A stretch of DNA of 5,033 nucleotides from a virus. Taxonomy: Duplodnaviria > Heunggongvirae > Uroviricota > Caudoviricetes. The notes beneath the pieces were generated by a model. That model ran no database searches. It was not told the origin of the DNA and saw nothing but the letters and a program-made list of their open reading frames with translations. The stretch lies in IMG/VR virus record IMGVR_UViG_2698536647_000008; one strand, given 5' to 3'. Positions 1 through 5,033 of the stretch are shown here, in pieces; positions within the stretch are counted from its first letter, which is position 1; each line of letters opens with the position of its first letter. Position numbers and translations under genes: made by a program.

Positions 1-432
1 TTAATTAAAGTCAATTCCTGACAAGTCTAATCCGAGTGAGCAGTTCAAAATTTTATCCATTGCATTACTGGATAATACTACCTTTAGCTTTGCAACTTTT
101 GCAGGTGAATCCAAGGTACTATTCTTAGTTATTAGTGTATAAAAATCAGAAACTGGTATACTTTCAATTGTATGATCATACCCTTTATATGCAGCATAAT
201 TGAATACAGTGTCACCATTCATATCGTAAGCATGTGATTCAAGATCAATAAAAAATTTATCAGAACTAGTTATTGCAACTGGCTTACCATCTTTATAGAT
301 TTTAACAGTACCTGCATGGCCCGATGCATTAATATTAACAGTGTACTTTTGCTCACAGGAATATGTTACAGATTTTGCCATAGTAGAAAAAGAAAGCAGC
401 ATAACAATACAAGGTACAAGAACCTTTATCAT
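1..432 (-). CDS. Hypothetical secreted (periplasmic) protein, 143 aa, with N-terminal Sec-type signal peptide
   Basis: Complete ORF: ATG at 432..430, TAA at 3..1. N-terminus MIKVLVPCIVMLLSFSTMA-KS has a hydrophobic core and an AXA-like cleavage motif; no C-terminal TM segment. GGAG sits 7 nt upstream of the ATG (minus-strand reading TAA-ACCTATTGGAGTACTTAC-ATG). Last gene of the minus-strand operon, 18 nt after the holin-like gene. No family recognised from memory. Confidence 0.55.
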   Translation of the reverse strand: MIKVLVPCIVMLLSFSTMAKSVTYSCEQKYTVNINASGHAGTVKIYKDGKPVAITSSDKFFIDLESHAYDMNGDTVFNYAAYKGYDHTIESIPVSDFYTLITKNSTLDSPAKVAKLKVVLSSNAMDKILNCSLGLDLSGIDFN

Positions 433-450
433 GTAAGTACTCCAATAGGT

Positions 451-741
451 TTAGCTCCCACCAATCAAGATTATCAGTACTTTCCATATTTCATCAAGTG
501 GAACAATGGGGAGTACCACACCACATAAGGCCAGTACTGGCACAATGACGTAGTTCCATAGAATGATGAACGTCAGTACCCATCCTAAGCCCTGTCGCCA
601 AGTGAAGCCCTTACGCGTTTCTTCAAGTGTGATCTGGTTCTGTTCATGGCTGTTCTGTGCGTCCAGCTCTTGCTTACTTTGTTCTTTCTTCTGGAAGAAA
701 CCTACTCCAGTTTTGATTAAATCAATTATCATTCCAATCAT
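451..741 (-). CDS. Putative phage holin, 3-TM type (resembles the 'holin of 3 TMs' family, PF11351-like)
   Basis: 96 aa. Hydrophilic N-terminal ~45 aa, then hydrophobic segments. The motifs TWRQGLGWV, LPIVPLDEIW and a C-terminal ILIGG match, from memory, the conserved WRPFxGWV / LPxLxxxEL / LLGLGG pattern of that holin family. ATG at 741..739 overlaps the upstream TGA (740..738) as ATGA. Family assignment is by recall, not by alignment. Confidence 0.6.
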   Translation of the reverse strand: MIGMIIDLIKTGVGFFQKKEQSKQELDAQNSHEQNQITLEETRKGFTWRQGLGWVLTFIILWNYVIVPVLALCGVVLPIVPLDEIWKVLIILIGGS

Positions 742-1049
742 TCAATGATCCCCACGCAATACACCCAAAAGTGTTTTCCCTTAACGAATAGTTTTTTATG
801 TTCGATTACGTACACATCCATCTGGTCACCTTGTAGTGACCATGTAAGTACTGAACCGTCCGTTATATTTTGTTTTTTCTCATAGCAAACATTCATAAAA
901 TGCTCGATATTAATCTGTTTACTCTTTAGTACCTTCTTGAACTTATTACCAAGAAAGCATTTATGAATTGGCATACTATTAGCCTCTGGTGTATTACCAT
1001 CGAGTTTAATCTCACTGGTTAGTTCACCATAATGTTCATCAAAATTCAT
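738..1049 (-). CDS. Hypothetical protein, 103 aa
   Basis: ORF with ATG at 1049..1047 overlapping the stop of the upstream gene (ATGA, 1049..1046), and its own stop overlapping the holin start. Called on coupling and operon context only; no motif recognised. Confidence 0.5.
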   Translation of the reverse strand: MNFDEHYGELTSEIKLDGNTPEANSMPIHKCFLGNKFKKVLKSKQINIEHFMNVCYEKKQNITDGSVLTWSLQGDQMDVYVIEHKKLFVKGKHFWVYCVGIIE

Positions 1050-1606
1050 CTTGTTACCTTGAATGTTCCCTGTATACCACTCATGACTAACATCACACCA
1101 TTATTCACTTCCTGATAGAAATCATAAATTAGTTTACGGCGTTTACTTTCCCGTAGGCCGATTACACGCTTTTGTTTTTTCTTTTGAGTAGTATCTATTA
1201 ATCGTTCTTTTCCGTTTTTACCTTTGACTATCTTGTAACGACCAGAGGCCAAATTTTTCTTTAGTCCACTAATGTTACCCTGCTTCGTTAGTCTTGCTTT
1301 CGAAGTAGGCACAAATTTATCAATGGCCTTTTGTTCAACCAGTACACCATATAAGTACTGTGCCTGAACATCTTTGACCATGATTGTAGCTGTGACCCCA
1401 CTACCCCGTTTTTTATAAAAGAATAGAATTGATCGTTGAGTGAAAGGTACTGCACCTTTGTCTACGGCATTGTTCATATCTGCCTGTACTTTCATAGATA
1501 ATACTCTTGAACGCTTAATAATTTCATCTTGGAACTGTTTACCTAACTTCGTTCCTGTTGTTTTTATATAGTTCGTGACATTATCTATACCCGTTATTCT
1601 TGTCAT
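1046..1606 (-). CDS. Hypothetical basic (Lys/Arg-rich) protein, 186 aa
   Basis: ATG at 1606..1604, 4 nt after the upstream TAA (1613..1611), with GAGGT about 6 nt upstream overlapping that stop. Very basic C-terminal half (KGKNGKERLIDTTQKKKQKRVIGLRESKRRK), which may mean nucleic-acid binding. No family recognised. Confidence 0.55.
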   Translation of the reverse strand: MTRITGIDNVTNYIKTTGTKLGKQFQDEIIKRSRVLSMKVQADMNNAVDKGAVPFTQRSILFFYKKRGSGVTATIMVKDVQAQYLYGVLVEQKAIDKFVPTSKARLTKQGNISGLKKNLASGRYKIVKGKNGKERLIDTTQKKKQKRVIGLRESKRRKLIYDFYQEVNNGVMLVMSGIQGTFKVTR

Positions 1607-1610
1607 ATAT

Positions 1611-2060
1611 TTACCTCACACCCAATAAATCAGTTAAATATTGCAGTACTTTAAATAAATCCAAACGGTTTTTTGGTAATCGTGCCTTACACATTATTGC
1701 CTTATTTAAACAGTCGGGATGTAAACCAAAGTAGCTAATCAATGCTGTTTCTAAAATCGTTGCCTCTGCGTCAGATTTAACACAGTACAAAATCTTTTTA
1801 GTGTATGGCATTCCGGCTTCAATCATTTCATTAACGCACTTACTACTACCGGTATAATCAGGCCAGTTCGATTCAACTGAAGTAGACTTTAAATTCTTTA
1901 TGTCGCGTACTTTTTTATAGATTTGCTTCTTACCGAAATAGTACTCGCCAGTCTCTGGAAACTGAATAATGTAGATAAACGAAACGTAATTCCCATCTGT
2001 TACTTCTGACATATTCCACATATTAATATCGAACATCTCCCATGCTTTATTAACTCTCAC
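1611..2060 (-). CDS. Hypothetical protein, 149 aa; possible degenerate GIY-YIG nuclease-like domain (speculative)
   Basis: First gene of the minus-strand operon. The ORF begins with GTG at 2060..2058, with AGGGA about 8 nt upstream; the first in-frame ATG (2036..2034) has no spacer to a GGGAG. Segment SFIYIIQFPETGEYYFGKK shows an IY...(about 10 aa)...YxFG spacing reminiscent of GIY-(10)-YIG, followed by Arg and Glu at roughly expected distances. The nuclease call is weak. Confidence 0.5.
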   Translation of the reverse strand: MRVNKAWEMFDINMWNMSEVTDGNYVSFIYIIQFPETGEYYFGKKQIYKKVRDIKNLKSTSVESNWPDYTGSSKCVNEMIEAGMPYTKKILYCVKSDAEATILETALISYFGLHPDCLNKAIMCKARLPKNRLDLFKVLQYLTDLLGVR

Positions 2061-2100
2061 AATAAATATCCCTATATAGATTTATTATAGGTATTTATTA
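2061..2100. promoter_or_regulatory. Divergent AT-rich intergenic region between the minus-strand operon and the plus-strand lysozyme gene
   Basis: 40 bp, almost entirely A/T (aataaatatccctatatagatttattataggtatttatta). The minus strand carries a consensus TATAAT (2089..2084) upstream of the GTG at 2060; the plus strand has AATAAATA (2061..2068), one mismatch from the T4 late-promoter box TATAAATA, and AGGT 8 nt before the ATG at 2101. No convincing -35. Low-complexity AT sequence makes chance matches likely. Confidence 0.3.
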
Positions 2101-2550
2101 ATGAGTAAACTAAAAGACAGATTAAAAGAATATGAAGGTACTATCGCTTATCAAACAAAATTGAAGTACTTTCACGATAACAAATTTTGGACATACAAAG
2201 ATTCACTAGAATTTGAAACCATCGGCTACGGTCATTTACTACATGTTGGTGAAAAGTATTCAGATGGTATTACTATTGAGCAAGCGGAAAGCCTACTAGA
2301 CCAAGATATATTAATTGCAGTGCATAACGTCGAAACACTCAATATCTGGCTACCTGACGAGTGGAAAGATTTTCTTGTGATAATGATGTTCCAGTTAGGT
2401 TTAGGCGGGGTACAGAAATTCAAAAAGATGTTAGTAGCCCTTAAAGCAAAAGATTACCCGGAAGCCATCAGACAGGCTAAAGATTCATTATGGTATAAAC
2501 AAACACCTAATCGTGTTGATGCAATGATTGCAGTACTAACCAACAAATAA
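2101..2550 (+). CDS. Phage endolysin, T4-lysozyme-like (glycoside hydrolase family 24 muramidase)
   Basis: 149 aa, ATG 2101, TAA 2548..2550. Recognisable matches to T4 lysozyme: LKEYEG (catalytic Glu region), YKDSLEFETIGYGHLL against YKDTEGYYTIGIGHLL (Asp/Thr catalytic region), MMFQLGLGGVQKF against MVFQMGETGVAGF, and WYKQTPNRVDAMI against WYNQTPNRAKRVI. No N-terminal TM or SAR segment, so it looks like a cytoplasmic, holin-dependent endolysin. Confidence 0.85.
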   Translation: MSKLKDRLKEYEGTIAYQTKLKYFHDNKFWTYKDSLEFETIGYGHLLHVGEKYSDGITIEQAESLLDQDILIAVHNVETLNIWLPDEWKDFLVIMMFQLGLGGVQKFKKMLVALKAKDYPEAIRQAKDSLWYKQTPNRVDAMIAVLTNK

Positions 2551-2553
2551 CAA

Positions 2554-2584
2554 AAAGGCGATAGCATTATGTACTATCGCCTTT
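2554..2584. terminator. Bidirectional rho-independent terminator candidate between convergent genes
   Basis: Perfect 11-bp inverted repeat AAAGGCGATAG (2554..2564) / CTATCGCCTTT (2574..2584) with a 9-nt loop. T-rich on the plus strand downstream (ctttcttcttattgttt) and A-rich upstream (caaaaa, giving a U-tract for the minus-strand transcript). It sits between the lysozyme stop (2550) and the stop of the minus-strand 88-aa gene (2589). Confidence 0.6.
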
Positions 2585-2588
2585 CTTC

Positions 2589-2855
2589 TTATTGTTTCTG
2601 TTCAAGAATGGTAATGATTTTTTCAATTTTCACATCCAGATCATGGATCTGGTTTTCAAGTTTAGTTAAAGCATCACGCATCTTATTCTGATCAGCTTCA
2701 ATACGCACCATACTACTTTCCTGTACTGCTTGTTTAGTTTCCAGTTCTGAAACACGTGTAAGTAGTCCATCAGTATCTTTTGTATTGTCGCGGAATACAG
2801 TGTACAGAAGTACACAGCCAGAAATAATAAGAGCTAATATTGTACCAATGTCCAT
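2589..2855 (-). CDS. Small membrane-anchored coiled-coil protein, 88 aa (i-spanin-like architecture; function unknown)
   Basis: ATG at 2855..2853, TAA at 2591..2589. One N-terminal hydrophobic segment (IGTILALIISGCVLLYTVF), then a charged, heptad-like region (ELETKQAVQESSMVRIEADQNKMRDALTKLENQIHDLDVKIEKII). No lipoprotein partner was found embedded in the one alternative frame I translated by hand. Confidence 0.5.
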   Translation of the reverse strand: MDIGTILALIISGCVLLYTVFRDNTKDTDGLLTRVSELETKQAVQESSMVRIEADQNKMRDALTKLENQIHDLDVKIEKIITILEQKQ

Positions 2856-2895: not shown

Positions 2896-3552
2896 TTAAT
2901 ATCCGGTGAAAGTAGCTAAAGCGATTTGAAAACCATTGTTGCCCATTGCCTGACGATATGTTTTCTGGTTCTTTGAAACGTACTGCAAGCTGAATGAAGT
3001 ACTGCTATTACGTCGAATAACTATTCCCGAATAACCGATTGTTTCACCATCATCACTTAAGTTGCCCGGACATTGTGACCAACAAAACCAGGGATTAGCA
3101 ACAGGGCTTGTTACTGTGATTGCAGTACTCAAATCCGTAGCAGCAGGTACAGTTAAGAAACCTTGTATACGGGGCATGGTAGCCGCCGATGCAGCAGACC
3201 ATATCAAAGTACCGGAAGCATTGAACACATCGAGATAACCAGACGTAGGTGTTGCAGTGTGCGTACTCGTCATGAATCGCCCTATCCCCGGCTGGAACAA
3301 CTCAGCACCGGGAAAACACCAGCCACCATCTTTCTGTATCTGAAACCAGTACTGCGTAGTGTTCCTGTTCACGATAGTTGCAAGTGGCAAGAAGCCAAGA
3401 GCACCACCATTACCAAAAGCACACGTAAAGCCAGTGTAATACCCCTGATCCGTCAGTGTACCCATTGCCTTAACAGCACCTGTGAGAATTGACTTGTTAG
3501 TACTGTCAATCGTCAGAGCACCCGCAGAATTATAAACTTCAAAACCTGACAT
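2896..3552 (-). CDS. Hypothetical tail-fibre-associated protein, about 218 aa
   Basis: The tracked ORF (2896..3597) begins with TTG and would overlap the upstream gene by 44 nt. I prefer the ATG at 3552..3550, which lies 1 nt after the upstream TAA (3556..3554; minus strand reads TAATATG) and gives MSGFEVYNSAGALTID... Its N-terminus resembles that of the preceding 98-aa ORF, with a further internal copy (DVFNASGTLIW). Located directly downstream of the tail-fibre gene. Confidence 0.5.
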   Translation of the reverse strand: MSGFEVYNSAGALTIDSTNKSILTGAVKAMGTLTDQGYYTGFTCAFGNGGALGFLPLATIVNRNTTQYWFQIQKDGGWCFPGAELFQPGIGRFMTSTHTATPTSGYLDVFNASGTLIWSAASAATMPRIQGFLTVPAATDLSTAITVTSPVANPWFCWSQCPGNLSDDGETIGYSGIVIRRNSSTSFSLQYVSKNQKTYRQAMGNNGFQIALATFTGY

Positions 3553-3553
3553 A

Positions 3554-3850
3554 TTACACCGTCCACTTATATACGTTGAAACTATACGTACCAGCAAACG
3601 GTGATCCCGTTGGTAGATAAATGATAGTCATTGAACCATTATTACAAATAACAGACCACTCATTAAAAACATCCGTAGATGGTGCGTAATAGGCAATCCA
3701 CCCTGTTGTTTTCATTCCGGGCACAGTGACGGTATAACTTGATGCAGTAGTAGCAGTAATTGAGTAAGTACCCATGTACCGCATATTATAATCACCGAGA
3801 TCTACTACTAATACCCCTGCACTATTCCAGCATTGTAATCCTTGTGCCAT
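3554..3850 (-). CDS. Hypothetical tail-fibre-associated protein, 98 aa
   Basis: ATG at 3850..3848 with a good RBS (AAAGGATTTAAA-ATG), TAA at 3556..3554. N-terminus GLQCWNSAGVLVVD parallels GFEVYNSAGALTID of the next gene. Thr/Ser/Tyr-rich composition is typical of beta-rich fibre or adhesin proteins. Confidence 0.5.
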   Translation of the reverse strand: MAQGLQCWNSAGVLVVDLGDYNMRYMGTYSITATTASSYTVTVPGMKTTGWIAYYAPSTDVFNEWSVICNNGSMTIIYLPTGSPFAGTYSFNVYKWTV

Positions 3851-3895: not shown

Positions 3896-4783
<888 letters not shown>

Positions 4784-4802
4784 TCAGTCAGAGGTGACTC
4801 AC

Positions 4803-5033
4803 ATGACAAAAACAGTATCAACCAGTAAAAAACCCCGTAAACAGCATTCGCCTGAATTTCGCAGTGAAGCCCTGAAGCTTGCTGAACGCATCGGTGTTAC
4901 TGCCGCAGCCCGTGAACTCAGCCTGTATGAATCACAGCTCTACAACTGGCGCAGTAAACAGCAAAATCAGCAGACGTCTTCTGAACGTGAACTGGAGATG
5001 TCTACCGAGATTGCACGTCTCAAACGCCAGCTG
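4803..5033 (+). CDS. insE: IS3 transposase OrfA (InsE), N-terminal 77 codons; truncated by the window edge
   Basis: ATG at 4803 preceded by GAGGTGA with a 5-nt spacer. Translation MTKTVSTSKKPRKQHSPEFRSEALKLAERIGVTAAARELSLYESQLYNWRSKQQNQQTSSERELEMSTEIARLKRQL matches the E. coli IS3 OrfA N-terminus as I recall it, including the helix-turn-helix region. No stop before the window ends. Confidence 0.93.
   Translation, partial: MTKTVSTSKKPRKQHSPEFRSEALKLAERIGVTAAARELSLYESQLYNWRSKQQNQQTSSERELEMSTEIARLKRQL

Follow-up and report, generated by a model that had tools for sequence, protein, structure and literature searches.

What does it mean for a phage lysozyme gene to run against every other phage gene around it? 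The question is raised by a stretch of 5,033 nucleotides from the IMG/VR virus record IMGVR_UViG_2698536647_000008 (Caudoviricetes), the whole of which we call the window, where a predicted T4-type lysozyme gene lies on the plus strand at positions 2101-2550. All other credible phage open reading frames (ORFs) of the window are on the minus strand, and the sole other plus-strand gene is the transposase gene (orfA) of an IS3 element, from 4803. The lysozyme gene is 1,360 bp from the holin-like gene p96 (451-741, minus strand). A preliminary description of the sequence had recognized the lysozyme as the only plus-strand phage gene, about 1.4 kb from the holin-like gene and on the opposite strand, and all of this holds; it suggested that the arrangement might reflect either a T-even-like ancestry or an independently regulated lysozyme. 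Comparison with related loci indicates that the reversed orientation is a conserved and probably ancestral trait of an uncharacterized prophage family.

A scan of one genome per species found the gene string J-p98-p218-p88-lys-giy-p186-p103-p96 in 16 Enterobacterales species, where lys is the lysozyme gene, giy a GIY-YIG gene and J a lambda-J-like tail-tip gene. The lysozyme gene alone is inverted in 12 of these species and is co-directional with its neighbors in the other four (Mangrovibacter, Serratia, Yersinia and Rouxiella). Five loci obtained in other ways from E. coli, Klebsiella and Enterobacter are all inverted, and 80 viral contigs add 47 inverted loci (two of them with no detectable giy) and 10 co-directional ones. 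The gene set around the lysozyme is thus kept in 21 genomes and 57 viral contigs, in two gene orders; the second order, which we call type B and which comes from viral contigs, reads J-p186-p103-p88-[lys inverted]-giy-p96. Far from being particular to the window, the inverted lysozyme is the majority state of the whole prophage family.

A neighbor-joining tree of lys, giy and p96 from 65 dereplicated loci resolves three groups, namely co-directional loci (CO, bootstrap 91), inverted loci of the type-A order (INV-A, bootstrap 97) and inverted loci of type B (INV-B, bootstrap 100). Because the inverted state is found in two of the three clades and the co-directional state in one, a single inversion on the co-directional branch suffices to explain the distribution, and the inverted lysozyme is probably ancestral in the family unless the root falls on the co-directional branch. 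Our own first guess, that the co-linear order was ancestral, was reversed by this larger sample. The lysozyme tree and the tree of its flanks disagree in places, and the cluster is therefore mosaic. In the co-directional loci the stop codon of the lysozyme gene lies within an overlap with giy, and translation of the two genes is coupled.

The lysozyme gene and giy diverge from a control region at 2061-2100 (both strands) that measures 40 bp and has a G+C content of ~17%, in accord with its earlier description as an AT-rich divergent region. It is a quasi-palindrome of two facing boxes and two ribosome-binding sites. On the plus strand, the box AATAAATA at 2061-2068 includes the 7-mer ATAAATA (2062-2068), which starts 39 nt upstream of the ATG of the lysozyme gene, and the box also makes up the 5' arm of a leader hairpin. 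Its mirror image, 30 bp away at 2092-2099 on the minus strand (ATAAATA at 2098-2092), stands 38 nt before the GTG start codon of giy; read on the plus strand, the same mirror box is the spacer between the lysozyme Shine-Dalgarno sequence (AGG, 2089-2091) and its ATG. The spacer between the genes folds as a hairpin because the two translation-initiation regions mirror each other, with the consensus AGGTATTTAT-ATG. The z-score of the hairpin of 2061-2100 is -2.9 on each strand, and across INV loci the values range from -2.3 to -7.2. The giy-lys spacer is 32-44 bp long in all 15 INV-A loci checked. A third ATAAATA box, at 2887-2893 on the minus strand, is found 38 nt before the ATG of p88, the gene that converges on the lysozyme gene. 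Neither strand of the window has any further copy of ATAAATA, and all three precede a start codon of their own strand by 38-39 nt; as a bare count, three is not above chance (2.0 expected).

The distribution of the box across the family is far more telling. We scored its presence 15-60 nt before the lysozyme start codon, with 46-nt windows as the background. Of 64 dereplicated loci, 57 have the box ahead of the lysozyme gene (37/41 INV-A, 11/12 CO and 9/11 INV-B), compared with ~1% of background windows, and the two type-B misses are mis-called start codons, the box being seen by eye in the one that was read. It precedes giy in 33/41 INV-A and 11/11 INV-B loci and in none of the 12 CO loci, where giy follows the lysozyme gene on the same strand. 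It is also present before p88 (30/38 INV-A, 5/6 CO) and before p103 in type B (7/7), and is never found before p186, p103, p96 or p218 in the type-A order. The distance from box to start codon is fixed at 36-43 nt. In CO loci the box directly follows the p88 terminator. In type-B loci it lies upstream of the Shine-Dalgarno sequence and not between that sequence and the ATG, so the box is not simply a ribosome-binding-site spacer. From this distribution we infer that the box marks the starts of transcription units, which in the inverted loci would be [p88], [lys] and [giy-p186-p103-p96], and in the co-directional loci [p88] and [lys-giy-...-p96]. An intact-looking relative of the prophage in E. 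coli ESBLEC_MG48, described further below, also carries ATAAATA in intergenic sequence upstream of two of its tail genes (L031 26464 and 30142, minus strand), with a hairpin after each copy.

At its other end the lysozyme gene runs into a bidirectional intrinsic terminator at 2552-2586 (both strands), common to lysozyme on the plus strand and p88 on the minus strand. The hairpin has 15 pairs and T-runs on both sides, with z-scores of -5.5 (plus) and -7.5 (minus), none of 200 shuffles being as good, and a terminator scan of the minus strand recovers it as a stem followed by a T-run. The bidirectional hairpin of the preliminary description is thereby confirmed, and a hairpin is found at the equivalent place in related loci, with one after p88 in co-directional loci. 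With its own promoter-like box and this shared terminator, the lysozyme gene is very probably a transcription unit in its own right. Since the same box precedes the neighboring units, it is best described as separately transcribed but probably co-regulated, a wording to be preferred to the earlier suggestion of an independently regulated lysozyme.

This layout recalls the leader of phage T4 gene e. There the ribosome-binding site is masked by a hairpin whose 5' strand contains the late promoter, and translation is confined to late, promoter-proximal transcripts (PMC3014915). The sequence of the T4 leader is TTTTATAAATACCTTCTATAAATACTTAGGAGGTATTATG, against CATATAAATACCCTATGATAATTGTTATAAGGTATTTATTTAATG for a family leader, that of locus L005. 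Reduced to their main elements, these are TATAAATACC...AGGAGGTATTATG (or TATAAATACC...GGAGGTATTATG) in T4 and TATAAATACC...AAGGTATTTAT..ATG in the family; the two leaders correspond in the box, in an ACC/GGT pairing and in position relative to the ATG. The box matches the T4 late-promoter consensus, TATAAATA (PMC3014915); across the family the 7-mer ATAAATA is kept at about -39 from start codons, and the first base may be T, C, G or A. In a promoter of the T4 late type such a box would stand about 7 nt upstream of the transcript start. The lysozyme is also like that of T4 in being soluble and holin-dependent by type, with its gene apart from that of the holin. The differences from T4 are that the gene belongs to a small prophage of temperate, siphovirus-like type in which gp55 is not detectable, and that the box is duplicated in mirror image to serve a divergent operon. 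The lack of a detectable gp55 means that the resemblance to T4 is functional and architectural and does not establish membership of the T4 late-promoter class. The suggestion of T-even-like ancestry accordingly fares unevenly: the gene content does not include a T4-like core, whereas the nearest phage homologs of the enzyme are in Rak2-like phages and the leader is like that of T4 gene e.

The 149-residue lysozyme itself scores 41.6 bits (E 1.9e-10) with PF00959 Phage_lysozyme, for which the cutoff is 22.3, as its first description as a T4-type enzyme would lead one to expect. It is ~35% identical to T4 lysozyme (T4L), and E12, D34 and T40 align with T4L E11, D20 and T26, leaving the catalytic residues intact; among 61 relatives E12 and T40 are invariant and D34 is present in at least 90%. 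An automatic alignment (A3) shifted the T4L N-terminus and paired E11 with residue 26, and since residue 26 is not a conserved acid the assignment to E12 stands. An insertion of about 13 residues after the catalytic Glu had been proposed, and alignment with T4L gives exactly 13 extra residues after E12 (in LKEYEG), seen as a gap of 13 columns in T4L that separates EG from the YKD strand. The same alignment uncovers a 15-residue deletion that had been overlooked and that removes T4L helix B (about residues 37-51). All 61 aligned family members have the insertion, within which Y17 and Q18 are invariant. An AlphaFold model (predicted local distance difference test score, pLDDT, 91.8) has the two-lobe T4L fold with the catalytic residues kept, and predicts the insertion, at pLDDT >90, as a short helix (residues 15-20) followed by one or more strands. 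Alignment and model thus show that the N-terminal lobe has been remodeled by the gain of a 13-residue helix and strand and the loss of helix B. We found no solved structure for this insertion-bearing GH24 subfamily, and no characterized member in the literature searched.

There is no hydrophobic, transmembrane or signal segment in the lysozyme, which begins with the hydrophilic sequence MSKLKDRLKEYEG and has no SAR domain of the P1 Lyz, R21 or Mu gp22 type at its N-terminus. The absence of a hydrophobic segment indicates an enzyme of the soluble, holin-dependent type. It consists of the catalytic domain only, with none of the OB-fold or beta-helix fusions of a gp5-type hub. The gene is under purifying selection, the ratio of nonsynonymous to synonymous substitution rates (dN/dS) being 0.06-0.25, and 0.24 against the Scandinavium copy. 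An NCBIfam scan returned only a match, far below cutoff, to a gene transfer agent (GTA) endolysin, which we set aside. We take this to be an ordinary GH24 endolysin of a distinct subfamily, with predicted muramidase activity. In E. coli 14EC007 the catalytic Glu of the lysozyme (L002:21659-22102) has been replaced by Lys (KEYKGT), while a near-identical Buttiauxella copy retains Glu; the change is probably an inactivating mutation of a decaying prophage. The RefSeq start of giy in 14EC007 seems to have been called 24 nt too far downstream.

The candidate holin is p96, the last gene of the unit that diverges from the lysozyme gene, whose 96-residue product has a hydrophobic C-terminal half (about residues 52-95). 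The window copy scores 16.5 bits against PF11351 GTA_holin_3TM, below the cutoff of 24.8; two orthologs exceed the cutoff and 14 of 19 match with E <= 0.01, and it is these family-level matches that identify p96 as holin-like. The 'holin operon' of the preliminary description is apt to this extent, and it also carries giy, p186 and p103. Of these, p186 and p103 are found beside the tail genes in type B and are therefore probably not lysis genes, which leaves p88, lys, giy and p96 as the core cluster.

These observations can be joined in a single explanation. The lysozyme would be expressed from a monocistronic unit made up of the ATAAATA box, a leader of ~25 nt with the Shine-Dalgarno sequence, the coding sequence and the bidirectional terminator. 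Provided that the boxes form a single class of promoter, the lysozyme, p88 and giy-to-holin units would fire together and be co-expressed late despite their opposite orientations, which would explain why a single flip of the lysozyme gene has been harmless. Here as in T4 gene e the box doubles as the 5' arm of a hairpin over the ribosome-binding site, and only box-initiated transcripts would be translated well, the leader hairpin silencing those that read through. The lysozyme would then collect in the cytoplasm until p96 permeabilized the membrane; having no export signal, it should reach the wall through p96 holes. On balance we favor this account as a whole, comprising an endolysin, a p96 holin and box-driven, co-expressed units in a family of temperate, siphovirus-like elements of roughly 35 kb in Enterobacterales, of which the window holds a defective copy, and we hold it with somewhat more confidence than doubt.

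The case for promoters is the part most open to challenge. A consensus scan detects no sigma-70 promoter in 2061-2100, and the box does not end in the T that is conserved as the last base of a -10 hexamer. No gp55-like sigma factor was found in the intact element, where a tblastn search with T4 gp55 gave a best E of 3.4 (distant homologs could escape such a search) and none of the early-region proteins scanned matches the gp55 PHROG or a sigma Pfam family. In loci with divergent genes, the Shine-Dalgarno sequence and spacer of one gene, read as their reverse complement, constitute the box of the other, which could explain part of the conservation of the boxes there. The leader hairpin is weak in co-directional loci (z-scores -0.5 to -2.7), and the two arms of one locus agree at 8.8 of 14 positions against 7.7 for arms from different loci (permutation p ~0.006, with loci that are not independent). 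We had looked for strong arm-to-arm covariation and rejected it, the effect being modest and the symmetry mostly a family-wide consensus. All of these points weigh against our interpretation. The lack of a sigma-70 consensus, the failure to find a gp55-like factor and the reverse complementarity, together with the AT-richness of the region and the near-chance count in the window, leave some room for the view that the boxes and palindrome are not promoters, being instead a by-product of AT-rich ribosome-binding regions or the operator of a dimeric regulator, with the lysozyme transcribed from elsewhere. We think this unlikely, if not greatly so, because the box persists where there is no divergent gene to account for it (before lysozyme in CO loci, before p88 and before type-B p103), is missing from internal genes and keeps a constant distance to start codons. 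As to a promoter elsewhere, the best sigma-70-like site of the window, TTAACG-16-TATAAT at 1831-1858 on the plus strand (10/12 matches), was considered and rejected: it is the antisense of the conserved GIY-YIG peptide YTGSSKxVN and scores equally where giy lies downstream of the lysozyme gene. That both orientations occur in the family might also suggest an invertible segment that actively switches the gene, a form of phase variation. This has next to no probability in our estimation, given that orientation strictly tracks phylogeny, with the co-directional loci forming one clade, and that the flanks differ by state, giy having a box only when divergent and being coupled to lysozyme when co-directional. 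We searched the flanks of the gene for inverted repeats and found none that convinced us, there is no invertase nearby and the sole recombinase is a large serine integrase ~30 kb away.

Reading the gene as the endolysin of the prophage family, with a virion role as the main rival, depends on a wider comparison. The insertion-bearing lysozyme occurs in 75 of 50,697 phage records, nearly all of them Rak2-like jumbo myoviruses with 2-3 paralogs each, and one the T5-like Erwinia phage KEY. The Rak2-like enzymes are the closest phage homologs (43-47% identity), and the stand-alone forms (RaK2 ORF073, 121Q gp586, CBB_239 and phAPEC6 gp242) share both the insertion and the deletion. RaK2 ORF073 even has TATAAATA 44 nt before its ATG, like the family box. 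They differ in being encoded in a baseplate cluster, between gp5-like hub and gp25-like genes, co-directionally with their neighbors, and in having ~10 extra N-terminal residues, and the same domain type ends the hub C-terminus. A different protein is the predicted endolysin of Rak2-like phages (PMC5259590). With the prophage lysozyme gene also adjoining tail-fiber genes, these facts suggest a tail or baseplate enzyme that aids DNA entry. The failure to find a spanin in a lipobox and transmembrane search (the Cys of p88 falls within its transmembrane helix) is a further point that the endolysin reading has to bear. We nevertheless judge a virion enzyme to be a poor prospect. A free-standing catalytic domain of 149 residues has nothing with which to be anchored in a virion, and a terminator separates the lysozyme from the tail and p88 genes in either orientation. 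Mass spectrometry of jumbo-phage virions detected the hub lysozyme, and the stand-alone homologs are not among the listed proteins (PMC7247149, PMC5259590), although their absence is weak negative evidence. Homologs that adjoin holins also exist: in Erwinia phage KEY the insertion-bearing homolog (41% identity) directly follows the holin, and environmental phages have a related lysozyme followed immediately by a PF11351-type holin. The absence of a second annotated lysozyme or holin from the intact ~35-kb ESBLEC_MG48 element, the holin-like nature of p96 and this pairing of a related lysozyme with a PF11351-type protein are the grounds on which we read the gene as an endolysin. A different objection is that in the window genome the lysozyme is a functionless relic of a dead prophage, since IS3 cuts the J-like tail-tip gene at 4737/4738, IS elements have stripped the nearest E. 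coli copy (AREA_C483) of its tail genes, and the 14EC007 copy has lost its catalytic Glu. We consider this improbable: the ORF, catalytic residues, box, Shine-Dalgarno sequence and terminator of the window copy are all intact, its dN/dS against the Scandinavium copy is that of a constrained gene, and relic status in one host would in any case leave the identity of the gene and its working in intact relatives unchanged.

Seen as an endolysin-holin system, the cluster differs from each of its closest parallels. Erwinia phage KEY has an adjacent, co-directional and overlapping holin-lysozyme pair with an unrelated 220-residue holin. The environmental pairing of endolysin with a GTA-type holin is echoed in the matches of p96 orthologs to PF11351, whereas in the prophage three genes and a strand switch intervene and the p96 of the window is itself below the Pfam cutoff. 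Endolysin and holin genes are non-adjacent in T4 (e and t) and in phage Mu, as here; those of the prophage lie within one 2.4-kb cluster at the prophage end, by the attachment site. In a Pseudomonas prophage an insertion-bearing homolog sits just ahead of the terminase genes, which we also count in favor of the endolysin role.

The remaining genes of the cluster can be described more briefly. The first gene of the divergent unit, giy (1611-2060, minus strand), encodes a SegE-like GIY-YIG protein (PF19835, E 4e-15) from a GTG start and adjoins the lysozyme gene in almost all family loci. Its product is short (126-149 residues, with no obvious DNA-binding domain) and diverges at a rate similar to that of its neighbors (see also L030:5468-5848). 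As a steady neighbor of lysozyme that keeps pace with the genes around it, giy does not behave as a homing endonuclease of sporadic occurrence would. A divergent GIY-YIG gene also flanks the lysozyme gene of an Aeromonas prophage, whose lysozyme is a different one that lacks the insertion. Downstream of giy, p186 (1046-1606, minus strand) has a weak 'minor tail protein' match, no box upstream and a place beside the tail genes in type B; no family was found for p103 (738-1049, minus strand), which travels with p186 in the type-B order. Two clearly distinct allelic types of p96 (alignment A4) do not follow the lysozyme tree. On the other side of the lysozyme gene, p88 (2589-2855, minus strand) encodes an 88-residue protein in which a transmembrane helix at the N-terminus is followed by a coiled coil of ~65 residues, and for which Pfam gives only generic coiled-coil matches. 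It is beside the lysozyme gene in most family loci and, with its own box and terminator, appears to be a transcription unit of its own; its role could be that of an antiholin, of a spanin-like protein or of some other lysis factor. A faint match of a p88 ortholog to DUF2730, which we take to be the family of the phage Mu 'releasin', was not reproduced in a direct Pfam scan and is irrelevant to a lysozyme with no SAR domain.

The window as a whole is the right end of a prophage, rendered defective by the IS3 element that cuts short its J-like tail-tip gene. In E. coli AREA_C483 a prophage remnant located between mipA and yeaG matches bases 1-2809 at 99.9% identity, and the same insertion site in E. 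coli 14EC007 holds a copy ~75% identical to the window. Beyond p88 are two small proteins with no assigned function (ORFs at 2896-3552 and 3554-3850, minus strand), the remnant of the lambda-J-like tail tip (3896-4737, minus strand) and the IS3 element (4738-5033, with orfA on the plus strand). The match to intact J genes ends at 4737-4739, while IS3 copies of other E. coli genomes match from 4719-4726, a slight discrepancy with the end of J homology. At the opposite end, p143 (1-432, minus strand) encodes a secreted protein of 143 residues that carries a signal peptide and matches no family. Relatives do not keep p143 at the equivalent position, where DUF3800 or other genes are found, and it looks like prophage-end cargo.

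The gene module is rare in E. coli, being present in 27 of 5,426 complete genomes. The intact-looking relative of ~35 kb lies in ybhA of E. coli ESBLEC_MG48 (NZ_CM132639, about 3,123,400-3,158,000; L031 and L032) and encodes a large serine recombinase, a GpA-type terminase, a lambda-J-like tail tip, DUF2163 and DUF6950 proteins, an OLD-type nuclease and a full head-tail set. Those of its early-region proteins that were scanned matched no functionally informative Pfam or PHROG family except for the OLD-type nuclease and a T5orf172-type domain, and most of them had no match in either collection. Among isolated phages, a DNA search matched only the IS3 part of the window, and no member of the prophage family was found in the 50,697-record phage collection; a protein search with p186 against isolated phages gave a single weak match (33.7% identity over half its length, E 4e-8).

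The enzyme adds little to what is known, being one more GH24 endolysin, though with a remodeled N-terminal lobe. The regulatory layout, as read from comparative sequence evidence, is the interesting part. One gene has been flipped in place and the operon structure rewired to suit, which makes the family a natural experiment. In the 40-bp mirror module a single box seems to act as a promoter element, as the spacer of the opposite gene's ribosome-binding site and as a hairpin arm, and the module has been kept in dozens of prophages, in which the early genes resemble nothing known. It is conceivable, though we would not expect it, that this small temperate family uses T4-type late promoters (TATAAATA) for its lysis genes with no recognizable gp55, relying on an unrecognized late sigma factor or activator among its wholly unannotated early genes or responding to a superinfecting phage that encodes gp55 (T4-, rV5-, ViI- or Rak2-like). 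Were that so, the mirrored module of box and hairpin would amount to T4 gene e control in compact, bidirectional form, with translation restricted to transcripts that begin at a box. More generally, if the boxes are promoters, they would provide a handle for finding the late regulator of this phage group, and the T4 gene e strategy of translating only the late transcript would be in use outside the T4 superfamily.

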